Source: an uncultured Acidobacteriota bacterium
GTDB taxonomy: Bacteria; Acidobacteriota; Terriglobia; Terriglobales; Acidobacteriaceae
Assembly: GCA_963838905.1 (NCBI GenBank)
Contig: CAWITE010000012.1
Span: forward strand, 133,650 to 173,649
Reading direction: 5' to 3'
DNA: 40,000 nucleotides
The position numbers and the translations under genes were made by a program. Under the pieces are notes generated by a model. That model did no database searches and had not been told where the DNA came from. It was given only the letters and a program-made list of their open reading frames with translations. This document shows positions 2,939 through 24,424 of the stretch, one piece after another. Position 1 is the first letter of the stretch; each line of letters opens with the position of its first letter.

Positions 2939-4324
2939 ATGCCCGCACTCGTCACGGTGGAACCACTTGCGGGCGCCGATTTGAGGAGGTATATCGTGCG
3001 GATAAAGCTACCCAAAACGAGAGCGAGGCTGGCTGGTCCCGGCACTCGGCTCTATGCTGAACCGAAGCCCAGCCCGGATGAGACTTCTTTCCAGATAGAC
3101 AACACCAGTTCCCAATATTACAACTCGCCGTACTACTCAGCGCATAAAGACCAGGTGCAAACTGTCCCGGCTCCGCAAAGCGGCGTGCCGCCCTATCTTG
3201 ATCTGCAGGATTTTATCCCCAGCGAAGTTCTCGACGCCATCAATGCGACCAAGAAGATTACATTTCACGCTGTAGGCGACACGGGCGCGGCCAAGGGAGT
3301 ACCCGCAACCGCCATCGCGCATGAGGGAGGAGTTGCGGACGCCATGGTAGCCGATGTGCAGTCTGGAGGCGTGAATGGCCCGGCATTCTTCTTCAACCTG
3401 GGCGACGTAATCTACAACTTCGGCGAAGCGCAATATTATTACGACCAATTCTACGAACCCTTCCGCGATTACGACCGTCCCATCTTCGCCATTCCCGGCA
3501 ATCACGATGGCATGGTTTTTGGCTCGACTTCGGCTACTCCGCAAGTTCCCACGCTCGAGGCTTTCCTCAGAAATTTTTGTGCCGACGCTCCCGGACCTTC
3601 GCCAAATTCCGGCGGCCTGGTACGCACCGTCATGACGCAGCCGGGAGTTTATTTCACGCTGGACGCTCCGTACGTCTCGATCATCGGAGTCTATAGCAAC
3701 GTGCTGGATTCGGGAGCGGGAGTCATTTCTTCTCAAGGTGGCAAGTTCCCTGTGGTTGGAAACGCCCAACTGGCTTTCCTGCAAAGCGAACTCAAGCGCC
3801 TGAAGGCGGACCGCCAAGCCGGGAATCGGGCCATCATTATCGCGGTTCACCATCCGCCAGCTTCGGTGGACGCCAAGCACGGCGGCTCCGTCGGCATCGA
3901 GAAAGATCTCGATAGCTGCTGTCAGGCCGCGGGGTTGTGGCCGGATGTAGTCCTTTCCGGACATGCGCACCTGTACCAGCGCTTCACTCGCGTGGTGAAC
4001 GGCAAGCAGGTTCCCTATATAGTTTCCGGTTCTGGAGGTTACGCAGCCACGCCGCCGCAAGGAGCGGCTCCCAAAGCGCCGTACACGATTGGCGATACCA
4101 CACTCGAGGTCGACCCTATTGTGGAATTTGGTTATCTGACAATCACAACCGATGCCAAAACGCTCTCAGTGACGTTTAAGACTGCGGCGAAGGGCGTCGT
4201 GATGGTGAGAGATTCCGTGAACCTGGACCTGACACAAGGACAGATCCTCTCTGGAAGTCACGCACCCAGTGGAGGAGGCAGCAAACCGAGACCGGTTCCT
4301 TCGAAGAAGGGAAAGAAGAAATAG
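2939..4324 (+). CDS. Calcineurin-like metallophosphoesterase
   Basis: Ordered metallophosphoesterase motifs: [30 protein letters not shown]. Start chosen at ATG 2939, which is preceded by AAGGA. The track ORF start at 2729 would overlap the nuoB start, so the start remains uncertain. Confidence 0.75.
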
Positions 4325-4330
4325 GTAGAG

Positions 4331-5353
4331 TTACGGATTCAGCACGATTTTGCCAAACATCTGACTCGTTTCCATATACTCGTGGGCCGCCCGAGCATCT
4401 TGTAACCGGAACGTACGGTCCACGACTGGTTTCAAGCGACCGGCAAAGACGTGGTTCAGCACGTCGTGCAATTCACTCATCGTGCCCATATAAGAGCCCA
4501 GGAAATTGAGTTGGCGGGAAAACAGAAAACGTAAGTCGAATGCCGCATTGTGACCAGTAGTCGCGCCGCAGGTAACAATCGTTCCTCCTGGCTTGAGCGA
4601 TTTCATACTGTCATCCCAGGTCGCGGCGCCAACGTGTTCGACCACAACGTCCACACCCTCTTTGTCGGTAATCTTCCGCACTTCCTGCGAGATCTTCTGC
4701 TTGTAATGATCAATGCCATAATCCGCGCCCAGCGTCCGGGCTTTCTCCAGCTTCTTTTCGCCGCCTGCAGTGGTGATCACGCGGGCGTGAAAAAGCTTCG
4801 CAATCTGAATCGCGGCGATGCCAACGCCAGAACCAGCGCCGAGAACCAGCACGGTCTGGCCGAGACGAATGCCTGCGCGGCCGACCAGCATGTGCCAGGC
4901 GGTGAGGAATACCAAGGGGACGCTGGCGGCATGGTTGAAATCCAGACTGTCAGGGATCGGAATCACGTTCACTGCAGGGATTTCGATCAATTCGCAGTAT
5001 CCGCCATCGACTCCGTTGCCCAGCGCCGTAAACTCGCGGCACTGATTCTGAAGTCCGGCAACGCACTTGGCACAATGATTGCAGAAATGCATCGGAGCCA
5101 AGAGCACCCGCTGCCCGGGTTTGAAGCCAGTAAGATAATCGCCCACTGCCACGATCTCGCCCGCGATGTCGCTGCCCAGAATGTGCGGCAGGTTTACTCC
5201 GGGAAGTCCTTTGCGCACCCAGATATCGAGATGGTTCATGGCGCAAGCTTTGACCCGGACCAAAACCTGGTCCTTGCGGGGCTGCGGGTCGGGAACGTCC
5301 TCGTAGCGAAGAACCTCCGGACCTCCGAATTCGTGGATGCGAACGGCTTTCAT
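4331..5353 (-). CDS. Zinc-type alcohol dehydrogenase / quinone oxidoreductase (MDR superfamily)
   Basis: MKAVRIHEFGGPEVLRYEDVPDP start, GSDIAGEIVAVG, CNHCAKCVAG (structural zinc loop) and VLGAGSGVGIAAIQIAK (Rossmann fold). Trimmed to ATG 5353. Confidence 0.85.
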   Translation of the reverse strand: MKAVRIHEFGGPEVLRYEDVPDPQPRKDQVLVRVKACAMNHLDIWVRKGLPGVNLPHILGSDIAGEIVAVGDYLTGFKPGQRVLLAPMHFCNHCAKCVAGLQNQCREFTALGNGVDGGYCELIEIPAVNVIPIPDSLDFNHAASVPLVFLTAWHMLVGRAGIRLGQTVLVLGAGSGVGIAAIQIAKLFHARVITTAGGEKKLEKARTLGADYGIDHYKQKISQEVRKITDKEGVDVVVEHVGAATWDDSMKSLKPGGTIVTCGATTGHNAAFDLRFLFSRQLNFLGSYMGTMSELHDVLNHVFAGRLKPVVDRTFRLQDARAAHEYMETSQMFGKIVLNP

Positions 5354-5470
5354 GCGAGTCGGCTCCTTGCGAGTCAAACCTAACATAAATCCTAGATTCA
5401 ATTCCCCGTTTTTGACGCGTATGTTGCCTCCATTGACTTGTTCCGACGACCCACGAATAATCAAGCTTGG

Positions 5471-6343
5471 ATGGACATCTACGAGGAAATCGTTAAGCTT
5501 CGGCAGGAGGGCCGCCGTGGCGCCGTGGCCACCATCGTCAACGTGCGCGGGTCGATCCCCTCTTTCGAGACCGCGAAAATGCTGGTGCGAGACGATGGCT
5601 CCATTGCCGGCACAATCGGCGGGGGCTGTGTCGAGGCCGACGTCTGGCAAGCCGCCCGCGAGGTCATGGAGAGTGAGAAGCCGCGCAGTCTGACCTTCAA
5701 TCTCAATCAGGATCCCAAGTACGATACCGGCCTCGTTTGCGGCGGAACACTAGACATTTTCATCGAGCCCGTATTACCTCCAGCGTTACTTTATATTTTC
5801 GGCGCAGGCCATGTCTCTGTTAGCCTTTACAAGGTTGCGAGAGGGGCAGGTTTTGATGTCACAGTCGTCGACGACCGGGAAGCCTATGCCAGTCGGGAAC
5901 GCTTCCCCGAGGCGAAGGAAGTAATTGCGGAAGACTTCGAGCAGGCCATGATCCGGCTCACACCGAATGAGTCGTCATATATCGTGATCGTCACTCGCGG
6001 GCACCGCGACGATATGCGCGTCCTTCGCTGGGCCGTGCAATCCCAAGCGAGGTACATTGGCATGATCGGTTCCAGGCGCAAGACGATTACAATCTTCCGC
6101 GAACTGACGAAGGAAGGCATTTCCGCGCAACTTTTCGAGCGTGTCCACGCGCCCGTTGGCTTGGACATCGGCGCCATTACCCCAGAAGAGATTGCAGTAG
6201 CCATCACTGCGGAACTGATTGCCGTCCGCCGCCGCGCCGAGGGAGCCTTGCCGCACATGAGCTGGTTCAAGGGCCGTGCAAGTGAACCGGACACGGACGA
6301 TGCTGCAACCGCGGCTCACGAAGAAAACGAGAGCCGTCGCTGA
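5471..6343 (+). CDS. XdhC/CoxI-family molybdoenzyme maturation protein
   Basis: MDIYEEIVKLRQEGRRGAVATIVNVRGSIP..., GGCVEADV, LYIFGAGHVS and GLDIGAITPEEIAVAI are characteristic of XdhC. Start trimmed to ATG 5471. Confidence 0.8.
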   Translation: MDIYEEIVKLRQEGRRGAVATIVNVRGSIPSFETAKMLVRDDGSIAGTIGGGCVEADVWQAAREVMESEKPRSLTFNLNQDPKYDTGLVCGGTLDIFIEPVLPPALLYIFGAGHVSVSLYKVARGAGFDVTVVDDREAYASRERFPEAKEVIAEDFEQAMIRLTPNESSYIVIVTRGHRDDMRVLRWAVQSQARYIGMIGSRRKTITIFRELTKEGISAQLFERVHAPVGLDIGAITPEEIAVAITAELIAVRRRAEGALPHMSWFKGRASEPDTDDAATAAHEENESRR

Positions 6344-6429
6344 CTTCTTGCTTCTGCTTTGGGTTGGCCTTTCAATCGCCAATCGGAAATTGACAATCGA
6401 AGTCCCTTCCTTTCTGCTATCTTCGGCTC

Positions 6430-7056
6430 ATGCCTCGCGCGCCTGACCTCTACGCTGTGATCCTTGCCGCTGGCGAGTCCACGCGCATGGGCACGGACAA
6501 GGCGCTGCTGCCTTGGCCGCCGGCTACGCCCGGCTCTCTGGCTGCCGGCCAAACTTTTCTTTCTGCCGCCATCCAGGCTCTCTATCCTTTTAGCGACAAG
6601 GTAATTGTGGTGGTCGGCAAGAACGAGAACAACCTGGGCCCAGTGGTATATGCCAACGGGGCATCGCTAGTACGCAATCCCGACGCCGAACGGGGACAGT
6701 TCAGTTCACTTCAAGTTGGCCTGCAGGAAGTCCTGAATGACGGTCGCGACGCCGCCATGGTCACCTTAGTAGATCGGCCGCCGGCGAGGGCAGCAACATT
6801 GCAGACTCTGTGCTCCGCCTTCGCCGATGCTGGGAACGATGTGTGGGCGGTTGTCCCGGAATACAACCGAAAACATGGACACCCTTTTCTGGTGGCGAGA
6901 GAGATGATCGAAGCTTTTTTGAAGGCTCCCCCGAGTGCAAACGCACGGGACATCGAACACCAGAACCTGCGGCACATTTCTTATGTTGTCGTGGACGATC
7001 CGCTGGTCACCTTGAATGTCGACACGCCCCAGGAGTATGCGGCATTATCTCAGTAG
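6430..7056 (+). CDS. MobA-like NTP transferase, probable molybdenum cofactor cytidylyltransferase (MocA-like)
   Basis: AVILAAGESTRMGTDKALLPW nucleotide-binding motif. About 200 aa, directly downstream of XdhC, which is a common pairing. Confidence 0.75.
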   Translation: MPRAPDLYAVILAAGESTRMGTDKALLPWPPATPGSLAAGQTFLSAAIQALYPFSDKVIVVVGKNENNLGPVVYANGASLVRNPDAERGQFSSLQVGLQEVLNDGRDAAMVTLVDRPPARAATLQTLCSAFADAGNDVWAVVPEYNRKHGHPFLVAREMIEAFLKAPPSANARDIEHQNLRHISYVVVDDPLVTLNVDTPQEYAALSQ

Positions 7057-7074
7057 CCCACGCATTCCTTAGAC

Positions 7075-7833
7075 ATGGACAAAACACACGTGACCCCGAC
7101 GACAACGCTCAAGTCCGCTGATTTTCTTGATTCGGTTCTTCGTCTTCAACCTCAACTTGCCGTCTTCGATTGCGATGGCACGCTGTGGGCAGGCGATGCC
7201 GGCGAGCACTTTTTCGACTGGGAGCTCAGGCGAGGCCTGCTTCCCGATGACGTCGCTCGCTGGGCGCGCGCGCGTTACGCCGACTACAAAGCAGGAAAGG
7301 TCAGCGAAGACCAGATGTGCGGCGAAATGGTGACTATTCACAGCGGGCTTGCCGAGTCCGAAGTGTTAGGTGCTGCTAAACAATTCTTTGATGAGAACTT
7401 CGTGAACCAGATCTTTCCCGAGATGCGAGAACTGATTCGCCGGCTGCAGAGCTCGGGTTGCGAAGTGTGGGCCGTCTCGTCCACCAATGAGTGGGTGATT
7501 CGAGCAGCCATGAAGTATTTTGGGATCGATGAGAAAAAGATTCTAGCCGCCTCGGTAGAGATCGACGCCGGACGCGTCACCGACCACTTGATTCGCATAC
7601 CGTCCGGAGAAGGCAAGCCGCGAGCGATACGCGACGTGATCGGAAAACACCCCGACGCGGCGTTCGGCAACTCCCGCTGGGATGCCGACATGCTTGCGAT
7701 TGCCCGCCACGGGTTCGCCGTGAATCCGAACCCCGACCTGGAGAAGAGAGCGCGCGAAAGCGGATGGACCATTTATTGGCCCGTTTTAGAGAACCAGGTT
7801 GACCGGAAAGAAGATAACCACAAAGGACACTAA
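7075..7833 (+). CDS. HAD-IB family hydrolase (phosphoserine-phosphatase-like)
   Basis: HAD motif I AVFDCDGTLW, motif II VSSTN and a distal GNSRWDADML acidic motif. Confidence 0.75.
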   Translation: MDKTHVTPTTTLKSADFLDSVLRLQPQLAVFDCDGTLWAGDAGEHFFDWELRRGLLPDDVARWARARYADYKAGKVSEDQMCGEMVTIHSGLAESEVLGAAKQFFDENFVNQIFPEMRELIRRLQSSGCEVWAVSSTNEWVIRAAMKYFGIDEKKILAASVEIDAGRVTDHLIRIPSGEGKPRAIRDVIGKHPDAAFGNSRWDADMLAIARHGFAVNPNPDLEKRARESGWTIYWPVLENQVDRKEDNHKGH

Positions 7834-7880
7834 GTAACACGAAGGGATTAAGCATCGGTGGTCATCCGAGAAATCCGTGG

Positions 7881-8240
7881 TTAACTCTTGAATTGCTTCA
7901 GCACCGCCGCAAGCGCATCCATGGCCAGATGGCTGGCGTGCGCAGAGGCTTCTGGCAGACCGCCGACGGCCTGCACAATTTCTTCGCGTCTCAAACCGCG
8001 GGCTGCCTCCAGCGTTATGCCGCAAACCAACTCCGTAAGCGCGGACCCGCAAGCCATGGCAGGAACGCATCCTTTCGCAAGAAAGCGGATTTCGGCGATG
8101 TGACCTTTGGCAACCTTCAAGCTCAATTGTAAAATGTCGCCGCAAGCGGGATTCACCACTTGCGCGGTTGCGTCGGCGTGGGCTACTTCGCCCGGGTTGC
8201 GGGGATGCTCGAAGTGATCGAGAAGCTGCCGAGAATACAT
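7881..8240 (-). CDS. Iron-sulfur cluster assembly scaffold, NifU N-terminal/IscU-like
   Basis: MYSRQLLDHFEHPRNPGEV..., NPACGD, GCVPAMACGSAL; three conserved scaffold cysteines; 119 aa. Confidence 0.8.
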   Translation of the reverse strand: MYSRQLLDHFEHPRNPGEVAHADATAQVVNPACGDILQLSLKVAKGHIAEIRFLAKGCVPAMACGSALTELVCGITLEAARGLRREEIVQAVGGLPEASAHASHLAMDALAAVLKQFKS

Positions 8241-8427
8241 CTAAAGAATTGTAACGTGCTGCGCTGGAAATCAACGATCAGGCTATCGACCATTCATCTC
8301 CAGGATTTTCCACAACCTCCCGGGCTAAGATGCATTAGCCAGAGTCATCTCTCTTGGAAACTTATGTCGCAGTGAACATTTCGAATCGTTGCGCCTTCAT
8401 CGTTCCTCTCAGAACGTTGGCCCGCCC

Positions 8428-8820
8428 ATGAAGCGTGTCGTCGCAGCGTTAATCTTCAAGGACGGAAAAGTGTTGGTGTGCCAGCGCACCCGTCATCAGA
8501 CCATGCCTTTGAAATGGGAGTTCCCAGGCGGCAAGATTGAAGAAGGAGAACAGCCACGGGCTGCGCTTCACCGCGAATTGGATGAAGAACTTGGAATCGA
8601 CGCCAAGATAGGCGAAGAGGTGTCGCGCATCGTCCACGAGTATCCGGGCGGAGGTTCGGTCGAGCTGCGCTTCTTCGTTGTGCACGAATACCATGGAAAA
8701 ATTGAAAACAGGATCTTTCGCGATGTTCGGTGGTCCCTGCGGTCGGAATTGCCGTCATACGATTTCCTCGAAGCAGATCTTAAGTTAGTCCGGGATCTGG
8801 CCGACGGGAAGATCGTGTAG
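8428..8820 (+). CDS. NUDIX hydrolase, MutT-like (8-oxo-dGTP diphosphatase type)
   Basis: Nudix box WEFPGGKIEEGEQPRAALHRELDEELGI. Start trimmed to ATG 8428 (MKRVVAALIF). Confidence 0.85.
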   Translation: MKRVVAALIFKDGKVLVCQRTRHQTMPLKWEFPGGKIEEGEQPRAALHRELDEELGIDAKIGEEVSRIVHEYPGGGSVELRFFVVHEYHGKIENRIFRDVRWSLRSELPSYDFLEADLKLVRDLADGKIV

Positions 8821-8825
8821 CGCAT

Positions 8826-9944
8826 TTACTCTTTCTTTTCGCTCCCCGTTTCTTGCGCGCGAAGGCACGCGCGAAGATACGCCTCAACTTCTCTCCTACC
8901 CGCGTGTTTTGCCCAATCGGCCGGAGTAGCATGCCAGAGGATGTCCTTCAAATCCAATCTTGCACCGCGCTCTACAAACAGGCGGACTAGTTCTTCACGG
9001 CCGGCCCCGGCAGCCTGGTGCAACAGTGTCGTATGCGAATGGCCCCCGACCGGGTTGTATCGGTTTGGATCTTCGCCCGCGTCAAGCAACAATCGAACAA
9101 TCTCTACGTGACCAAATTGCGATGCCAAGGTAAGTGCCTGATGGCGGTCCTCACCGCCGGCAGTTGGAAGTAATCGGCTGGCATCCTCGATCCGTCCCAG
9201 AGCTGCTGCTACAGGCAAATCGATCCCAGCGCCGCGCCCTAACAGAGCGCTGACCGCTTCGAGCTCGCCGTGCAGGGCTGCTGCTTGTATGGCAGCGTTG
9301 GGGTTCGCTCGGCGATCACACAGGAGATCGATTAACGGACGTTGCACGCGACATTCACGCGCCACACTGCCAGTGCAAACGAGCATCAGTGTTTCGTTCA
9401 GCGCGCACTGTTCCACGCCAGCATCGAGAATGACCATGGCCACCTCAACAATGTTGTCAGGCAGCCTCCCGTAGCGAACCGGATTCTCCGCCACAAACTC
9501 CAACAGCGTCGGATTCCGAAAATAGTTCCCGCCTTCGAATACGACGTGCTGATGCACCAGATTCGGGTGCTGGTGTAGGTAGGCACGCAACCCTGCTACT
9601 TCGCCTGCATCGAGAAGATCCACGGCGCGCCGAAACATGGCGTCTTCAATGCGTTCATGGTGAGGCAAATTCAATTGGTCAGACAGCGTTGGTCTTTCGA
9701 TATGCTTTTTCAGTCTCGTCCAGCTCGGAAATCCATACTCGCGAGCGATTGTGAGCTGCGCGTCACTGAGGCGCGGCTGGGCCTCGAAGATTTCAGCGTC
9801 CGTGGCCTGACGAAAGCGCGGATGAAATTCCCTGATCCGCTGCGCCACTCCTGGATTGCGGGCAGCATGTCCCTTTAGCAAGTCTTTCGCTTGATATCTC
9901 AAATGCTCGAGGTTGGGATTCGATGGGAAGCGTTTTACCGGCAT
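8826..9944 (-). CDS. Ankyrin-repeat protein
   Basis: Several ANK-like units (LHGELEAVSALLGRGAGIDL, GHVEIVRLLLDAGEDPN, TLLHQAAGAGREELVRLFVERGARLDLKD). Confidence 0.75.
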   Translation of the reverse strand: MPVKRFPSNPNLEHLRYQAKDLLKGHAARNPGVAQRIREFHPRFRQATDAEIFEAQPRLSDAQLTIAREYGFPSWTRLKKHIERPTLSDQLNLPHHERIEDAMFRRAVDLLDAGEVAGLRAYLHQHPNLVHQHVVFEGGNYFRNPTLLEFVAENPVRYGRLPDNIVEVAMVILDAGVEQCALNETLMLVCTGSVARECRVQRPLIDLLCDRRANPNAAIQAAALHGELEAVSALLGRGAGIDLPVAAALGRIEDASRLLPTAGGEDRHQALTLASQFGHVEIVRLLLDAGEDPNRYNPVGGHSHTTLLHQAAGAGREELVRLFVERGARLDLKDILWHATPADWAKHAGRREVEAYLRACLRAQETGSEKKE

Positions 9945-11025: not shown

Positions 11026-11051
11026 GGGCCGCCGTCGTGGCAGGAGAGTTC

Positions 11052-12167
11052 ATGTTGAAAAATGCAGCGGTCGTGTCTGTCGGCAAAACCCCTCCCAGTC
11101 TTACTCCTCGCGATTTAGTCCGAGCCGGGTGGCGGGTGCTCAATGGTTACACGCCGATGCTTTCCATTGAGATCACTCGTGAGTGTCCTCTGAGCTGCCC
11201 CGGCTGTTACGCCTATGGCGAAAGCCACCTGGGAGGAGAAACCACGCTGCGCGACCTTAGCGACTTTCGCGGTGATGATTTGGTCGAGAATGTCGTCAAC
11301 CTGGTCCGCCGGCACCGGCCGATGCACGTTTCCCTGGTCGGAGGCGAGCCGATGATTCGTCATCGGGAACTGGATCGCATTCTCCCAGCCCTCAGCGACA
11401 TGGGTGTCTTCACCATGGTCGTGACCAGCGCAGTTATTCCCATCCCGGCGCACTGGATGAAAATCCCTCGCTTGCGCGTCGCGGTTTCCGTTGACGGCCT
11501 TCCGGAGCATCACGATCCGCGCCGCAAGCCTGCAACCTACGAACGCATCCTCAAGAATGTCGCCGGACGATCGATCAACGTGCACTGGGTGATCACCCGG
11601 CCGATGCTGGAGAGGGCTTCTTATCTCGAGGAGTATGTCGCTTTCTGGAATGCGCGGCCTGAGGTCGATCATATTTGGGTGAGCCTGTACAGTCCGCAAA
11701 TGAATGAGGAAAGCCCGGAGCGGTTGAGCGCGGAAGACCGCGAATTCGTGGCGCGGACGCTCCCTCCCCTGCGTCATAGCTATGCAAAGCTGCAGATGCC
11801 GGAGGGAATGGCACAGGCGTTCGTGAAGCCGCCAACATCTCCGAAGGATTGCCTGTTCTCGAAGGTGTCGATGAACTATTCCGCGGATCTGCGCACTCGC
11901 GTCGAGCCCTGTGTTTTCGGTGGAAATCCCGATTGCAGCCAGTGCGGCTGCAGCATCAGCAGCGCGCTGCACTGGGTTCGCGAGGTGAAACTGGCAGGGC
12001 CATTGAAGGTTGGTCATCTGGTGCAATCTGCATTGAGCGTAGGATCCACCATGAGCAAATTACGCACCGAATTCCGGCCGCCGAACCGCTGGCAAGCGGG
12101 AGCGCACTCCTCTGATGAGACCAGTCCACTGGTTCAGATTCAAGCTCAGGTTCCCAAGGAGATTTAG
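11052..12167 (+). CDS. Radical SAM protein with a Cys-rich C-terminal (SPASM/twitch-like) region
   Basis: CPLSCPGCY (CxxxCxxC) after ITRE, GGEPM, and a C-terminal CVFGGNPDCSQCGC. ATG 11052 is preceded by AGGAG with a 5-nt spacer. The track start, GTG 11037, is also possible. Confidence 0.8.
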   Translation: MLKNAAVVSVGKTPPSLTPRDLVRAGWRVLNGYTPMLSIEITRECPLSCPGCYAYGESHLGGETTLRDLSDFRGDDLVENVVNLVRRHRPMHVSLVGGEPMIRHRELDRILPALSDMGVFTMVVTSAVIPIPAHWMKIPRLRVAVSVDGLPEHHDPRRKPATYERILKNVAGRSINVHWVITRPMLERASYLEEYVAFWNARPEVDHIWVSLYSPQMNEESPERLSAEDREFVARTLPPLRHSYAKLQMPEGMAQAFVKPPTSPKDCLFSKVSMNYSADLRTRVEPCVFGGNPDCSQCGCSISSALHWVREVKLAGPLKVGHLVQSALSVGSTMSKLRTEFRPPNRWQAGAHSSDETSPLVQIQAQVPKEI

Positions 12168-13458: not shown

Positions 13459-14769
13459 TCAGGCGCGACTCCCCGCCCCCGCCCGGGCCTGTGTGATCCG
13501 AGGTAGCAGCAGCGGGTACTGACGTAGGATTTCTGCAAACCTTTCCCACGTCAGCTGCTTTCCACGTGTCCGGCGGCTCAGCCATTCCCGCCAGATGCAA
13601 CGGACTCTCTGATAGAACTGCCGAATAGCGCGGTAGTTCGTGCGTCGTCCGTAGTACTGGTAATGGCCGCGGAGCTTGGCGTTCAGGGTTTTCTGCTGCT
13701 CGTTCACCGCATCGTGCCGGTGCTGTTTGCACCATTCCCAGATTGCCTTCAGCCCTCTACCAAGCCGCTTGGCAATGGTCTTCACGTGCACTGTGAACCT
13801 CCCCTGTCGGCTGCGGGTGCATATGTGCACAAAGCCCAAGAAATTGAAGGTTGCAGGTTTCTTTCCCTGCTTCCTCGCGTTCTTGGCTGCATATCGCCCG
13901 AATTCAATCAGCCGCGTCTTCTCCGGGTGCAGTGTCAAACCGTATTTCTCGAATCGCTTCGGCAAGACAGCCAGCACCTTTTCTGCGTCCTCCTTGTGCT
14001 GAAAGCACAAGATGGCATCATCAGCAAAGCGGATCTCGTAGGCTTCCCCTTTTAGCCGGGGCTTCACTTCGTTCTCGAACCATTCGTCGAGAATGTAGTG
14101 CAGGAATATATTGGCCAGGAGCGGACTGATGGGTTGCCCCTGTCCTGTACCTGTTTCGCTCACGAGTAGTCTGCCGTCTTCGATGACCCCGACCTTGATC
14201 CACTTTCCGATCAGTCGGAGCACGCTGCCGTCGGTTACCCGCTTCTCTATCATCTCAACCAGAGCCGATCTCACTATCGAGTCAAAGTATGAGCGGATGT
14301 CAATCTCCAGAATCCACCCTATGGGCCGGGTACAGATCATCCGTCCCACCTCATCCAGTGCTTGGTGTTGCCCGCGTCCGGGTCGAAACCCATACGAGCA
14401 ATCGAGAAAATCCTGCTCATAGATGGCGTTTAATAGGCCAACCGCCGCTTTCTGCACGATCTTATCCTCGAGGACGGGAATCGAGATCGGCCTCTGTTTC
14501 CCGTCTTCTTTGGGAATATAGACACGTCGCAGTGGTTGGGCCCGATACTTGCCTTCTTTGAGCCGCTGGTGGAGCTGTCGGATATTCTCTTCAGCGTTCG
14601 TCTCGTATTGTTGGTACGTGACGCCGTCGATCCCAGCACTGGCATCCTTTCGCAGACTCCGGAACGCCTCATACAACTTCTCGCCTGTGATCAGGTGAGC
14701 CATAGAGTAGAACTGCCGTTTCGGATCTTCCTTGGCGAGTTCAGCTATTCTGTTGATGTCTGTGAACAT
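13459..14769 (-). CDS. Group II intron reverse transcriptase/maturase (no endonuclease domain)
   Basis: RT motifs RRVYIPKEDGKQRPISIPVLEDKIVQ, YGFRPGRGQHQAL, DIRSYFDSI, QGQPISPLLANIFL, RFADDAILCF and FLGF, plus the maturase X motif LNAKLRGHYQYYG. 436 aa. Confidence 0.9.
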   Translation of the reverse strand: MFTDINRIAELAKEDPKRQFYSMAHLITGEKLYEAFRSLRKDASAGIDGVTYQQYETNAEENIRQLHQRLKEGKYRAQPLRRVYIPKEDGKQRPISIPVLEDKIVQKAAVGLLNAIYEQDFLDCSYGFRPGRGQHQALDEVGRMICTRPIGWILEIDIRSYFDSIVRSALVEMIEKRVTDGSVLRLIGKWIKVGVIEDGRLLVSETGTGQGQPISPLLANIFLHYILDEWFENEVKPRLKGEAYEIRFADDAILCFQHKEDAEKVLAVLPKRFEKYGLTLHPEKTRLIEFGRYAAKNARKQGKKPATFNFLGFVHICTRSRQGRFTVHVKTIAKRLGRGLKAIWEWCKQHRHDAVNEQQKTLNAKLRGHYQYYGRRTNYRAIRQFYQRVRCIWREWLSRRTRGKQLTWERFAEILRQYPLLLPRITQARAGAGSRA

Positions 14770-19322: not shown

Positions 19323-20396
19323 TTACGGCAATCCCAAACTCCCGTATGACCTAGGGTATGTCACGATGCCCCACGGTAGCTTGAATCCTTCGATTGTCCC
19401 GACCAGTTTGTATGAACTCGCATCGATCACAACTACATTGTTTGATCGTCCACAGGCCAATAAAATCCTGGAATCGTCGGGTGTAAATGTGAAATGCCAG
19501 CACCTCGTGCCGGTGGACACTTCTGCTAGGAGTTGCAGAGAATCCGCCGAAAACACTTGGAGTTTACCTGCCAGCGCGGCTGAAACCAAAATGCGCTTAC
19601 CAGCGCGGTCGAACGCGACTCCGTAGGGCTTCGCTGCTGTTGGCACAGATTTGATTGCTTTGAAGTTTGGGTCCATTGTCAGTAACGTTCCCGAGCTTTC
19701 CATCGTCACCGCGTACTGTTTGCCCTGCGGAGACACTTTGACGGCGCGCGGGCGCATTCCGTAGGGTCTCAGATCGACATCTCGCAGATGCCGCCCGGTG
19801 GCTTCGTCGAATACTCCGATGGTTTCCTGCGATTCATTGGCTACCAGCATTAACTTTCCATCGCCTGAAAATTCGATGCCTTCCGTCTCCTGGCCGGCGG
19901 TGGAAGTTGGGCCCGGCACCCAGTCTCCTACGTGGAATGAGGCGATCTGAGCGGGCGGCCCGTTTTCGTCATGGCTGTCATTCTTGGCTTTCGGAGCTCC
20001 GGGAGGTCCGCCCTCCGAACTGGGTTCGAAAGTCGCGAAAAGCCGGTCGCCAGCGGGATTGATCTTGATGAACTCGGGGCTCTCGCCGATATGGATTCGT
20101 CTAAGCAAGCTCAGGTCCGGCGTACTGAAGACCGCACCATCGCTTGTGTTTTTGTTCGATGTGATGACGTATTTTCCGTCGAATGTAACCGCCAGTCCTC
20201 GTGGCGCGAGATCGCCCGGTTCGACCCGGCGGATTACCTTTAGCGTGCTTAGGTCGATCTCGCTGATCCCGCCATCCTCTTCGCTCACATAGGCAACGTT
20301 GGTCGGAACTTTCGGGGAGTCCGTCCCGAGGATTCTCCCTGCGGGGGCGATTATGATAACCGCCAACAACCAAGGGCGGATTGTCCTTGATCCCAT
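19323..20396 (-). CDS. Secreted YVTN/YncE-like beta-propeller repeat protein
   Basis: Signal peptide from MGSRTIRPWLLAVIIIAPAG (start trimmed to ATG 20396). Repeated ~40-aa blades (PRGLAVTFDGKYVITSN, PEFIKINPAGDRLFAT, PRAVKVSPQGKQYAVT, PYGVAFDRAGKRILVS). Confidence 0.7.
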   Translation of the reverse strand: MGSRTIRPWLLAVIIIAPAGRILGTDSPKVPTNVAYVSEEDGGISEIDLSTLKVIRRVEPGDLAPRGLAVTFDGKYVITSNKNTSDGAVFSTPDLSLLRRIHIGESPEFIKINPAGDRLFATFEPSSEGGPPGAPKAKNDSHDENGPPAQIASFHVGDWVPGPTSTAGQETEGIEFSGDGKLMLVANESQETIGVFDEATGRHLRDVDLRPYGMRPRAVKVSPQGKQYAVTMESSGTLLTMDPNFKAIKSVPTAAKPYGVAFDRAGKRILVSAALAGKLQVFSADSLQLLAEVSTGTRCWHFTFTPDDSRILLACGRSNNVVVIDASSYKLVGTIEGFKLPWGIVTYPRSYGSLGLP

Positions 20397-20478
20397 CACG
20401 CATCCTTTCTCAATATCAACTATAAGCCAATGCTCGGCATCCGGCACTCGATGAATCGCTCCGGGTTCTAGAATGTCG

Positions 20479-20787
20479 TTACAACGCGAAAGGTATATTG
20501 CCGCGAGGGGCCGAGTGCGTTGCCGGAGAACAGGCCTCCGAGTCGATTACTTCGAGCGTATTGCTCAGGTTCGTAGCGTCGGCCTGCAAGCGCACCGAAC
20601 GCTTTTCCCGCTGGTAGAGATCGGCGCCCACCGAAGCATTCTGCGTGAAATAAGGATGGATGCGGTCGCGAACGAAATTGAGGTGATTAATCATTACCTG
20701 ACCGTATTGGAGGGCATATTGTTGAGGGGATAAATCCGGTTCAAACGGCAGTCCGCTGTTGTAATCGGCGCCCACAGCGATCCACAA
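20479..20787 (-). pseudogene. Orphan 3' fragment of a TonB-dependent receptor-type outer-membrane barrel
   Basis: The ~100 aa ...GADYNSGLPFEPD...VRLQADATNLSNTLEVIDSEA...APRGNIPFAL* look like the last beta strands and C-terminal aromatic tail of a TonB-dependent receptor. There is no upstream continuation, because the preceding sequence is the 3' end of the PQQ-propeller gene. Confidence 0.5.
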
Positions 20788-20949: not shown

Positions 20950-22554
20950 TCAATTCTTGCCGCCCAGAGTAAATGCGTACACTTTGTTATTTCCGGTTCC
21001 GATAGTGTAACCAGAACCCCAATAGACGGCGCCGTCCACGATGGATGGCCCATCGATTACGGAACCGCCGCTGGCGAAGTTCCAGAGGATTTTCCCGCTT
21101 GCCGTGTTCAGCGCGTACATCTGCCCCGACAAAGAGGGTGCATACAGGACGCCATTCGCAACACTCACCGAGCCAATATCGAAGGTGCCTTTAGTGGGGT
21201 CTGCTGTCTGCCAAAGGATCTTCCCAGTGGCGACGTCAAGTGCGCCCCACGATCCCCACGTAATCTTCCGTCCCGAAGGCACCAAGGTATATTCGATTTT
21301 GTCGGCATCCGAGATAGCGACATAAACGCTCTTATCATCGGTTGCGGTGCCCCACTCGATGCCTCCTAGGTCACTGCCCGGCCCAACCTGTGTGGCCCAA
21401 ACGAGGTCGCCGCTATCGGGATTTAATGCCCAATAGATGCCGCTCTTTTGGCCAAAACCGACAATATCGCCCACCAGATTGGGCCCCGACCCTCCAAAGT
21501 CGAAATCTGGGCTGGCGGGTACTTCACAATTCTTGTTTGGAGCTTTCTTAGTTAAACAGGCGACTGTCCAAGTGTCAAACTCTCGCGCCTTTCTCGCCCA
21601 CTTGATCTGCCCGGTCTTCAAATCCAATGCAAGAACGCTGTCGAAGTAATCGTCCAGAGCGGTGCAGTCATCGTTTGGAAATTTGTTTTGGCAGGCTTCC
21701 ACATCTGCAGGTGCGGTGTAGTTATCACCGGTGCCGACGTAGAGCGAACCGCGCTTTTTATCAATCGCGGGTGGTTGCCAAACCACTGCGCCGCTGTATC
21801 CGCCCGGCACACCGCCGTTGTCCGGCACAGTGAAGGTCTGCCACAGCACCTTACCGGTCTTTGCATCGAGCGCCACTACGCTGCCACGAAATGTACAACA
21901 ACGATATGTTTTGAATTCCGATGCAGCAAGACTCTCCTCGAACGAAGACACCCCAATGTAAACCACCCCGTCGAAGATAACCGGAGATCCCGTAATGATT
22001 GATGCCGGATGTTTCGACACCTTAGTAATCCACCGGAGCAATCCTGTTCCCTGATCTACTGCGATCACGTTCGCGCCCACCATTTTCAGATTGCCGGGGG
22101 TGAGCATGGCAGGATTGGCGCGAATCGCGCCGCCTTCGCCAGCGATGGGGTTGTCCCCGAAAATCAACTGATTATTAGCGATGTCGACGGCAGGACTAAC
22201 GCGTGAGATAGATCCTTTGGCGCCATCGTAGTCCGAGATCAGGTGAGTCCAGATGAGATTGCCTGTCTCCTTGTTCACTGCGTAGAGATTGCCACCCCAA
22301 TCGGGAAAGTAGACGGCGTTTTTGTAAACGGTAGGAGTAGCAGAAACATCGTTGCTAGTTGTAAACACCCACTTTTTGCTCAGGGTGTGCACGTTGGCGC
22401 GAGTGATTAAGTGCTCTGCCGGCTGGCTGCGGCTGTTGTTGAGATTCTGACCGGCTATTGGCCATTGTGCTTGGCCTTGCGCGGTCAGTGCCGAGACTAA
22501 CAAAAGGACGCTGATCGATGCCGTCATGGGCAATGACACGTTGCGTGCGTTCAT
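20950..22554 (-). CDS. Secreted PQQ-binding-like beta-propeller repeat protein (quinoprotein dehydrogenase-like)
   Basis: Signal peptide (SVLLLVSALTAQGQA). Repeated PQQ-propeller blades (VYFPDWGGNLYAVNKETGNLIW, GSVVALDAKTGKVLWQ, VLALDLKTGQIKW, WALNPDSGDLVWA, GALDVATGKILWQ, GQMYALNTASGKILW). Confidence 0.8.
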   Translation of the reverse strand: MNARNVSLPMTASISVLLLVSALTAQGQAQWPIAGQNLNNSRSQPAEHLITRANVHTLSKKWVFTTSNDVSATPTVYKNAVYFPDWGGNLYAVNKETGNLIWTHLISDYDGAKGSISRVSPAVDIANNQLIFGDNPIAGEGGAIRANPAMLTPGNLKMVGANVIAVDQGTGLLRWITKVSKHPASIITGSPVIFDGVVYIGVSSFEESLAASEFKTYRCCTFRGSVVALDAKTGKVLWQTFTVPDNGGVPGGYSGAVVWQPPAIDKKRGSLYVGTGDNYTAPADVEACQNKFPNDDCTALDDYFDSVLALDLKTGQIKWARKAREFDTWTVACLTKKAPNKNCEVPASPDFDFGGSGPNLVGDIVGFGQKSGIYWALNPDSGDLVWATQVGPGSDLGGIEWGTATDDKSVYVAISDADKIEYTLVPSGRKITWGSWGALDVATGKILWQTADPTKGTFDIGSVSVANGVLYAPSLSGQMYALNTASGKILWNFASGGSVIDGPSIVDGAVYWGSGYTIGTGNNKVYAFTLGGKN

Positions 22555-22624
22555 GGACTTCTCCTTACTCTTAAGCGGAACTAGGTTTGTAATTTAGGCT
22601 CATCCGCTGCAGGAAACCGCCCTA

Positions 22625-22640
22625 CCTGGGCGAGCCCAGG
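22625..22640 (-). promoter_or_regulatory. GC hairpin between the pqqA-like ORF and the PQQ-propeller gene
   Basis: CCTGGGC(22625-22631)/GCCCAGG(22634-22640). No clear U-tract follows in the minus orientation. It could be a processing or stability element like those described between pqqA and pqqB. Confidence 0.35.
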
Positions 22641-22664
22641 ATTTTGGTGCTTCTCTGGCGAGGA

Positions 22665-22742
22665 TTACAGCGCAGCGCTGGCGTAAGAGTTGATCTCACA
22701 GTTCAGCGCGACTTCTTCGAACTTCGGTGCGGTCCACTCCAT
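22665..22742 (-). CDS. pqqA: PqqA-like precursor peptide (25 aa)
   Basis: Absent from the ORF track because it is too short. My translation is MEWTAPKFEEVALNCEINSYASAAL*. It matches the PqqA pattern (W-x-x-P near the N-terminus, then E-x-x-x-Y; here E16...Y20). A perfect AAGGAG lies 6 nt upstream of the ATG. Confidence 0.7.
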   Translation of the reverse strand: MEWTAPKFEEVALNCEINSYASAAL

Positions 22743-22894
22743 GATCTTTCTCCTTTCCGAGAACAGCCTTAACTGTGCATTGTTCCCGTTGAATTGAGCT
22801 GCTTTAGGCTGCATGCACGGGAGGTGCCACTGTCGAATCATCCTCCCGAAATCTTGCTTGTCAAGAAATTTCGTCTCTTAGCCAAAGCGTCTTT

Positions 22895-22926
22895 GTTTAC
22901 ATGAATCAGGGTTTACATGAATCAGG
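22895..22926. repeat. Perfect 16-bp tandem direct repeat (GTTTACATGAATCAGG x2)
   Basis: Read directly: 22895-22910 and 22911-22926 are identical. Confidence 0.95.
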
Positions 22927-23140
22927 ATTCTCGTTTTTGGACAAACGCCACGCCGGGGCCTGTCTCCAAGGTATATCGAAATGCTGGTCTGTCAATGGGC
23001 AACCAATTCGGAATGGGTGCCGGGTATCCATTGAATATTGTAATCACATGCTCTTTCACGGCGGAAGTTGTCAATGGATTGTCATTTTTCTGTAAACATC
23101 CAAAGCGTTAGCGCCCCCACGGCTGGTTGAGACGATTTAT

Positions 23141-24424
23141 TCAGGACGGTTGTTTTGCGGGATTCCAAGCAGCCTTCGCTTGCGCGTGCTTACGGTGTGT
23201 TGCTGCTTCCTTGGCAATCGCTTCAGGGGTATGTCCCGCCACACGTCCGGCCCTCGCGACTTCCGCCAGACGCTTGGTTGCAATCTTAACGTCGCACTCT
23301 GTACAATTCTTTGAATCACCTTGAACCGCTTTGCCGCATCCACGGCAGAGGCGCTCTGGTTTTGGGGCTTTGACTTCCGAAAACGACGGACGACCCTTTG
23401 CGACGCGGCGATGCTGCTGAGTAAGCGGAGTTGAAAGTTTGCCCTCACTTTTTGGTGGAGATGTCGTAGCCCACAAAGTCCGCGCCACGTACTCAGCCCA
23501 GGGCGCAATAAGCTTTCCCCGAGTGGGCGCTGTCTCGGATAGCCAGGCGCAGAGATGAGTCATAAGCCTGCAATTGCCAGTCGCAGTCTCGAAGAAGTCA
23601 GCCCGGCGTAATGGCTCCGTACTCCGCCACTGATGCAACCAGTGCTCTACCTCTGGGCGTACAGGCTTCATAATGTCGCAGGCCAATGAGTCGCGGTTTG
23701 CCCGTGGAAGACGTAGAAAGCCGATTTTTGGATCAAGACCAAGAATGGAGAGGGCTAAACGCTCTTCCGACTCACAAACGGCAAAGATGAAATTCAAAAG
23801 TGCGCTTGCAGGATTCACGGCGAGCCGGGGGCCGCCCGTAAGCGGACTTGCTCGGGTGCCGAACGTGCGCCAGTGGTCGGGAACTCTGCGTAGATCAGAC
23901 CTTGGCCAGAGTAGCGGAACGTCGCGCCATGCATTCCAATATGCGATTGCTGCATGTGCTTCGAGGGTACGGACGCTATCCAAATTGTCAGCGTTGTCCA
24001 GTCTCACCCGGAATCCGGTTATCGCATCCGCGGCCGCTGAGTTTTTCAATTTATCGCGAACCAGGGTTTCCTGCCCGCGCAATTTTGCCGAGATTAATTC
24101 TTTAGAGATCGCGAGCGCAGTTCCATTGCTGAGAGCGCGTGCCTGTGCAAGTCTGAGCCGGGCGTCGGACGGCGCGGTTGGCCCGGTTACGAACACAACT
24201 TTTCCGATACGATCCAGCATCACGGGAGAAGCGCCGATATCGCTTAACCACTTCAGTGCCGAGAGTGTGACGAAGCCATCATCCGAAATACAAACCAATC
24301 GACGCAGATTGTGATTCACGCGGCCAAGCCTGATCGTGCGGCGCTCGTTGCCCACGCCATCTTCGATGTCAAGATGACCGGACTGCATACGCACGCGCAC
24401 GCCAAAGCCGTGGATCGCGAGCAC
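23141..24424 (-). CDS. Stand-alone Cas1-like protein with a C-terminal zinc-ribbon extension
   Basis: Cas1-like blocks occur in order: an N-terminal beta domain (GFGVRVRMQSGHLDIEDG...RRLVCISDDGFVTLSALKWLSDIGASPVMLD), LEAHAAIAYW (Glu155), NPASALLNFIFAV, GLDPKIGFLR and SLACDIMKPVRP. The tail carries C360-x2-C363...C374-x2-C377. GTG start with an in-frame TAG two codons upstream. Family assignment is by eye only. Confidence 0.65.
   Translation of the reverse strand: MLAIHGFGVRVRMQSGHLDIEDGVGNERRTIRLGRVNHNLRRLVCISDDGFVTLSALKWLSDIGASPVMLDRIGKVVFVTGPTAPSDARLRLAQARALSNGTALAISKELISAKLRGQETLVRDKLKNSAAADAITGFRVRLDNADNLDSVRTLEAHAAIAYWNAWRDVPLLWPRSDLRRVPDHWRTFGTRASPLTGGPRLAVNPASALLNFIFAVCESEERLALSILGLDPKIGFLRLPRANRDSLACDIMKPVRPEVEHWLHQWRSTEPLRRADFFETATGNCRLMTHLCAWLSETAPTRGKLIAPWAEYVARTLWATTSPPKSEGKLSTPLTQQHRRVAKGRPSFSEVKAPKPERLCRGCGKAVQGDSKNCTECDVKIATKRLAEVARAGRVAGHTPEAIAKEAATHRKHAQAKAAWNPAKQPS

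Follow-up and report, generated by a model that had tools for sequence, protein, structure and literature searches.

A second, operon-detached pqqA gene kept beside a secreted quinoprotein-like propeller gene in an uncultured acidobacterium

In the canonical pqqABCDE operons, e.g. those of Klebsiella pneumoniae and Methylorubrum extorquens, the gene for the PQQ precursor peptide PqqA is followed by a stem-loop, and the processing of PqqA takes place in the cytoplasm. The operon is not the sole setting of this gene. M. extorquens AM1 carries two orphan genes, pqqA2 and pqqA3, that are regulated apart from the operon (PMC11317620). Methylovorus sp. MP688 is reported to have five pqqA copies and a supply of PqqA that is rate-determining (PMC11317620, PMC6520949), and members of the Methylophilaceae harbor from 3 to 12 copies (PMC4109929). 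Methylosinus trichosporium OB3b has a pqqA that was left unannotated, is uncoupled from the remaining genes, and is expressed far above pqqBCDE (PMC3615186). A place next to pqqB is typical of pqqA but not obligatory, as the orphan copies on record show (PMC11317620, PMC4109929). The orphan copies of methylotrophs are under separate regulation, and are thought to raise or tune the supply of PQQ.

Here we describe an operon-detached pqqA from an uncultured member of the Acidobacteriaceae (genome G000), found in a 40,000-nt stretch of DNA (C12:133650-173649), hereafter the window; positions given without a contig or locus name are those of the window. On the minus strand, 22665-22742 translates to MEWTAPKFEEVALNCEINSYASAAL followed by a stop, i.e. 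25 codons, with the ATG at 22740-22742 and a Shine-Dalgarno sequence, AAGGAG, read from the sequence 7 nt 5' of it (22750-22755, minus). An earlier note on this DNA, written from the letters without database searches, had matched this ORF and its AAGGAG to the PqqA pattern, and had singled out E16 and Y20 as the Glu-x3-Tyr pair that is cross-linked. Both readings are borne out: the pair is Glu16-Ile-Asn-Ser-Tyr20, invariant in all copies compared, and the peptide passes both PqqA models, with 26.8 bits against TIGR02107, the model that the note had proposed (cut-off 20), and 25.8 bits against PF08042 (cut-off 21.1). A six-frame search with TIGR02107 of the entire 7.95-Mb genome returned exactly two matches, this ORF and the copy before pqqB, and the same model gave nothing above its cut-off on 14 control genomes; given these counts, the match is not one of chance. 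The ORF is a genuine pqqA, which we call pqqA2, a second PQQ precursor gene detached from the operon. A longer, 58-codon frame over it in the ORF list adds merely a non-conserved upstream extension. The description of the gene as unannotated holds indirectly, in that the exact peptide is on record from JGI contigs and not from NCBI, which is the source of the record for the neighboring propeller protein of this genome. Both pqqA copies of G000 seem to escape gene callers, and the capacity for PQQ synthesis of such genomes can therefore be under-called.

The second match belongs to a complete pathway elsewhere in the genome. On contig C1, pqqA (165317-165394), pqqB, pqqC, pqqD and pqqE stand consecutively on one strand, and the products of the latter four (C1:162026-165304) exceed their NCBIfam cut-offs (PqqB 360.9 bits against 245, PqqC 326.7 against 240, PqqD 57.6 against 46, PqqE 519 against 381). 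The genome-wide search proposed earlier for pqqB/C/D/E and further pqqA copies is thereby answered with one full pqqABCDE set and one other pqqA. A profile search of the window found no pqqB, pqqC, pqqD or pqqE, as had been stated from inspection, and the one radical SAM gene in the window (11037-12167, plus), which had been judged not to be PqqE-like, reaches ~27 bits against the PqqE cut-off of 381. Nor is pqqA2 directly upstream of pqqB, the next elements being a decayed 5' remnant of pqqB and a gene for a beta-propeller protein.

The origin of pqqA2 can be read from a comparison with the operon copy. The two peptides are identical, and the genes differ at 10 nt in 9 codons, with 10 synonymous and 0 non-synonymous differences, one of them an AGC/TCC serine switch. 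Random single-base changes in this ORF are synonymous in ~25% of cases, so that 10 of 10 would have P ~1e-6 under neutrality. Beyond the stop codon, 22603-22645 (minus) is a decayed 43-nt piece of the 5' end of pqqB (~codons 3-17), its frame broken by four single-base indels, which scores 37 in a local alignment to the C1 pqqB versus 14.5 +/- 2.2 (maximum 26) in 2000 shuffles. Upstream of pqqA2, ~14 nt (CAGTTAAGGCTGTT) resemble the leader of the operon copy, a likeness that is not significant alone. The identity of the peptides, the synonymous nature of the differences and the broken pqqB piece next door lead us to conclude that pqqA2 arose by duplication of pqqA together with the start of pqqB. 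The duplicated segment would have been ~180 nt long, beginning ~35 nt 5' of pqqA and reaching into pqqB as far as codon ~17, and the pqqB piece would then have decayed as pqqA was held intact. The decayed remnant is an internal neutral control beside pqqA2, and the substitution pattern indicates that pqqA2 itself is under strong purifying selection. The earlier suggestion of a decoy pqqA was rejected, because a decoy fits neither a peptide identical to that of the operon copy nor selection of this strength.

The linkage of pqqA to the propeller gene is conserved among relatives. A search of the genus recovered propeller orthologues in three other species (96, 90 and 77% identity), with pqqA ~110 nt upstream on the same strand. 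A metagenome contig whose propeller is 76% identical shows the same layout, as do 7 of 8 metagenome contigs with propeller identities of 88-95%. Three close relatives (82, 83 and 90%) carry a more divergent pqqA, 150-185 nt downstream of the propeller gene. At all examined loci with a propeller identity of at least 75%, a pqqA stands no more than 200 nt away, either upstream (G082, G087, G069, L077/78 and L160-L167 except L162) or downstream (L074, L075/76 and L162). The earlier note had asked whether the small ORF is absent from orthologous loci, and it is conserved at every one examined. The note had listed this absence, a genome lacking pqqBCDE and a failure against the PqqA model as outcomes that would speak against its reading, and none of the three was seen.

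Five orthologous modules of the upstream type (G000, G082, G087, G069 and L077) were aligned. Within the module, conservation is highest in the pqqA ORF, with 9% variable columns (7 of 78, no gaps), as against 43% in the leader, 35% with indels in the spacer, and 22% in the 150 nt that open the propeller gene; the Shine-Dalgarno sequence is AAGGAG or AAGGAC throughout. The DNA of the whole module is highly conserved among congeners, and ORF conservation among orthologues is for that reason, on its own, weaker evidence than the comparison of paralogues. The propeller-linked pqqA genes lie 1-4 nt apart from each other and 7-18 nt from operon copies, and therefore share one origin. In G069, an 84%-complete assembly in which no second pqqA was detected, one contig carries, in order, pqqA, the pqqB remnant, the propeller gene, a piece of a 102-codon ORF, and pqqB-C-D-E. 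The remnant in this species is closer to the pqqB of G000 than to its own pqqB, and the pqqA-propeller module therefore seems to have been acquired there as a unit.

At greater distance, ~150 members of the propeller family (46-72% identity; from Acidobacteriota, Steroidobacteraceae, Sorangium, Nostoc and Actinomycetota) have no pqqA nearby, the exceptions being L170 and L149, so that the linkage is largely clade-specific. Sampling of one genome per genus returned distant propeller homologues only, without pqqA. The L149 locus (4001-8908) is from the actinomycete Goodfellowiella coeruleoviolacea DSM 43935, in which a 47%-identical propeller gene directly precedes pqqA-pqqC-pqqE-pqqB, the pqqA being of a long-leader form of 47 codons (...WQRPEIEDFETAMEVTAYVARR).

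The surroundings of the module show synteny as well. The 102-codon ORF (20479-20787, minus), 3' of the propeller gene, keeps its position in relatives at 51-97% identity, although searches of Pfam and NCBIfam assigned it to no family, even with E relaxed to 10. A gene for a YVTN/YncE-type beta-propeller (19323-20447, minus) is syntenic with the module and 88-97% identical in metagenome contigs; its best NCBIfam match is TIGR03866, named 'PQQ-dependent catabolism-associated beta-propeller protein', at 113.5 bits, below the cut-off of 287. A Cas1-like gene upstream of pqqA (23141-24424, minus) is likewise syntenic in metagenome contigs, with 80% identity in three of them (L164, L166 and L167:2-928), and has a 58%-identical counterpart, a 509-aa ORF, in L077:530-2059. 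The block made up of the Cas1-like gene, pqqA, the propeller gene, the 102-codon ORF and the YVTN propeller gene moves together. A reverse-transcriptase ORF is also present in the window (13459-14769, minus).

Congeners carry, in addition, a second class of orphan pqqA, MEWTTPQFEE[IV]SLNCEINSYANAEL and variants, in up to five copies per genome, each located downstream of an unrelated gene, whose 3' end is ~50-250 nt away and which is of BNR-repeat, FG-GAP-repeat, AcrB-type or unknown kind. Copies of this class were recorded at L064, L053, L054 and L055 (G064), L065 and L057 (G076), L066 (G074), L060 (G089), L061 (G081) and L063 (G061). One further copy, L077:5325-5400, is decayed, with an ACG start and a lost stop, and is followed, after ~500 nt, by the intact propeller-linked pqqA; in this lineage, orphan copies are accordingly lost as well as gained. 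Since these other orphans adjoin genes that have nothing to do with PQQ, adjacency alone need not mean functional coupling.

With regard to expression, the 5' leader of pqqA2 (22743-22800, minus) is kept in all five modules, and divergence is complete further upstream. A sigma-54-type promoter-like site, TGGCAC-N5-GTGCA (22814-22829, minus; 72 nt before the ATG), is taken as a lead only: the window holds 2 such sites versus 0.09 expected by chance (the second, TGGCACAATGATTGCA, at 5068-5083, plus), the genome encodes a sigma-54 (rpoN), and the site before pqqA is present in G000 and G087 and absent in G082, G069 and L077. A sigma-70-like site at 22864-22837 was discarded, being not conserved in orthologues and having a count no better than shuffles. 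On the minus strand between pqqA2 and the propeller gene, no terminator-like site was found. Inside the pqqB remnant lies a 6-bp GC-rich stem-loop, CCUGGG-CUCG-CCCAGG (22625-22640, minus), without a U-tract, a T-run following on the other strand only; a stem of 5-6 bp is retained in four of the five modules, with differing loops. The pqqA-propeller spacer folds no better than its shuffles (z = -0.59), and an Rfam search of 22300-23200 returned no family. A 29-nt stretch of the spacer (22596-22624, minus; TAGGGCGGTTTCCTGCAGCGGATGAGCCT), which overlaps the pqqB remnant in part, is nearly invariant in the five modules, other parts of the spacer varying with indels, and it may have gained a regulatory role. 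On C1, the stretch beyond pqqE (G000 C1:159249-162029) encodes an OmpR-type response regulator and a histidine kinase, and homologues of this regulator, with 62% and 57% identity, adjoin the propeller gene at L074:2256-2933 and L107:55-744, respectively, which hints at shared two-component control of the pqq operon and the propeller gene.

The propeller gene (20950-22554, minus) starts 110 nt 3' of pqqA2 on the same strand, and is the probable downstream gene of an operon. Its 534-aa product had been described as a secreted, PQQ-binding-like propeller, and matches to the PQQ repeat families (PQQ_2; PF13360, 109 bits; PF01011, 71.6 bits, cut-off 26.7), together with a signal-peptide-like N-terminus, agree with a secreted eight-bladed PQQ-type beta-propeller protein. 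Against the alcohol dehydrogenase family TIGR03075 it scores 78.7 bits, far under the cut-off of 480, which three other proteins of G000 pass. Nor does it qualify, by score, for the 'empty quinoprotein' family TIGR04528 (76.3 bits against 650, C-terminal blades only). An hhalign comparison with a genuine PQQ-ADH of G000 is end to end (residues 27-531) at 99.9% probability and E = 1.5e-31. An AlphaFold model (pLDDT 72.7) has 1kv9, 1kb0 and PedH 6zcv as its top Foldseek matches, at TM 0.57-0.60, with BamB and tetrathionate hydrolase matching too. JGI labels relatives of the protein 'polyvinyl alcohol dehydrogenase (cytochrome)'; no cytochrome domain was found in the protein itself.

Designed propellers and BamB repeats made up most of what sequence and profile searches of the PDB returned, and the active site was mapped via hhalign to the PQQ-ADHs of G000. 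E206, W259 and D277/N278 align with the corresponding residues of the true PQQ-ADH; position 277 is Asp here and Asn in most relatives, and N278 is invariant. We assign their roles by taking MDH Glu177, Trp243 and Asn261 to be the metal-ligand Glu, the PQQ-stacking Trp and the metal-ligand Asn. The earlier proposal to look for the ligand residues of quinoprotein dehydrogenases is thus answered in part: the Glu, Trp and Asn are in place by alignment, with roles assigned after MDH, and the canonical vicinal Cys-Cys pair is absent where the ADH_C6a of G000 has one. This absence is not decisive, because two of the three TIGR03075-passing proteins of G000 also lack any Cys-Cys. A nearly invariant pair, C219-C220, is located in an insertion after E206. 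Opposite the catalytic Asp, hhalign places T330 with low confidence, beside a 20-residue insertion of low pLDDT. A likelier counterpart of the catalytic Asp is the invariant D350-F-D352-F-G-G motif, which stands after a Cys-bracketed insertion and immediately ahead of the next strand. PQQ dependence of the protein is probable, mainly in view of the conserved ligands and the genetic linkage. As for the three TIGR03075-passing proteins (C6:126709-128208, C1:46348-47847 and C6:712613-714094; one with a Cys-Cys pair), an Asp-x-Asp motif (DWD, DYD) occurs in the first two and did not turn up in the third; we take this pattern to be that of lanthanide-dependent enzymes. More widely, the secreted PVADH-like propellers form a large, uncharacterized family that is very common in soil metagenomes, and their repeated linkage to pqqA or pqq operons in two phyla flags them as probable PQQ enzymes.

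We consider it likely that pqqA2 is a functional extra precursor gene, probably co-transcribed with the gene of a PVADH-like quinoprotein, in such a way that cofactor supply would track apoenzyme synthesis. One alternative raised in the earlier note, an uncoupled precursor gene placed by a PQQ-using enzyme, fits the data, with PQQ use by the propeller as the conditional part. The two genes most likely form one transcript, because they are 110 nt apart with no intrinsic terminator between them, and precursor supply would then go up when the apoenzyme is made. Once translated, the pqqA2 peptide would pass to the proteins encoded on C1, with PqqD binding it, PqqE cross-linking Glu16 and Tyr20, and PqqB and PqqC completing the synthesis; the same proteins would handle it because the precursor is identical to that of the operon copy. 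Each PQQ made consumes one PqqA molecule, and a second pqqA with its own promoter should for this reason raise precursor supply, from which a benefit of dosage would come. The stem-loop in the spacer may make the pqqA message exceed the propeller message.

Other explanations make different use of the same observations. The duplication scar shows that pqqA2 began as a passenger fragment, and decayed orphan copies exist in relatives (e.g. L077:5325-5400), as would suit a silent relic, a by-product of duplication that landed before the propeller gene, still intact, unused, and bound to decay like the pqqB piece. We regard this as improbable, however, in light of differences from the operon copy that are synonymous in 10 of 10 cases (P ~1e-6), a Shine-Dalgarno sequence and start codon that have been kept, and an ORF that is the most conserved element of the module next to a remnant with indels; moreover, the propeller-linked pqqA of G069 is the only one found there and heads pqqBCDE. 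A regulatory leader ORF, in which the propeller gene would be controlled by the act of translating pqqA2 or by the RNA structure that follows, and the peptide would be unneeded as a PQQ precursor, agrees with the position of pqqA2 at the 5' end of the presumed operon, and with the stem-loop and the near-invariant 29-nt stretch (22596-22624) in the spacer. A leader has no need, however, of the preservation of every PqqA residue, Glu16 and Tyr20 included, the spacer has neither a fold better than that of its shuffles nor an Rfam match, and in three relatives pqqA cannot act as a leader because it lies downstream of the propeller gene, all of which makes a leader function very improbable.

The propeller protein might also serve in the biogenesis or handling of PQQ, e.g. 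as a periplasmic PQQ-binding or maturation protein, and not as a dehydrogenase, the pair then being a biosynthetic sub-operon. Its gene does stand between pqqA and pqqB in G069, and directly before pqqA-pqqC-E-B in the actinomycete, and the protein scores under the cut-off of the alcohol dehydrogenase family and is without the canonical Cys-Cys pair. Most pqq operons, including that on C1, have no such propeller gene, however, most members of the propeller family are not near pqq genes, the protein keeps the metal-ligand Glu, stacking Trp and Asn known from quinoprotein dehydrogenases, and it is secreted whereas PqqA is processed in the cytoplasm; a biogenesis role is, in our view, unlikely. 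It is possible, and we offer it tentatively, that pqqA, the pqqB scar and the propeller gene make up a transferable cassette, an uncharacterized quinoprotein with its own precursor supply. The propeller clade would have picked up pqqA at least twice (the upstream and downstream forms), and the cassette would have moved between species, as the scar of G069 resembles the pqqB of another lineage, and in one species would have replaced the native pqqA heading pqqBCDE. If this is true, the activity of the propeller enzyme in soil acidobacteria is limited by precursor supply, and that supply is under local management, one gene at a time.

Extra and orphan pqqA genes are already known; new here are the host phylum, the fixed quinoprotein-like partner in several arrangements, and the visible scar of duplication. 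Acidobacteria join the bacteria in which extra pqqA genes outside the operon are on record, and the pqqB scar is an unusually clear record of how such copies arise, whereas knowledge of PQQ biosynthesis itself is unchanged by the finding. As in the canonical pqqABCDE operons, pqqA2 encodes a peptide of the same family with the Glu-X3-Tyr pair, and a hairpin after pqqA could favor the pqqA message; unlike in those operons, a secreted propeller gene is downstream in place of pqqB, of which a 43-nt decayed remnant is left. The propeller protein resembles the PQQ-dependent PVADH and the type I/II quinoprotein ADHs (1kv9, 1kb0, PedH 6zcv) in being eight-bladed and secreted with the Glu, Trp and Asn conserved. 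It differs from these enzymes in that a cytochrome c domain is missing, as is the canonical vicinal disulfide, C219-C220 being in an insertion instead; its identity to solved quinoprotein structures is ~17-20%, and it stays far under the TIGR03075 cut-off.

The closest parallels remain the detached pqqA genes of methylotrophs. Like the pqqA of OB3b, pqqA2 was missed by gene callers, is located away from pqqBCDE, and was found by manual inspection, but the OB3b gene is the sole pqqA of its genome and has measured expression, whereas pqqA2 is a second copy known from its sequence. It shares with the orphan pqqA genes of methylotrophs the presence of extra precursor genes off a single pqqBCDE set, encoding near-identical peptides. 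In contrast to these, the host is an acidobacterium and not a methylotrophic proteobacterium, a recognizable fragment of pqqB is still attached to pqqA2, and pqqA2 is fixed before one quinoprotein-like gene across species.
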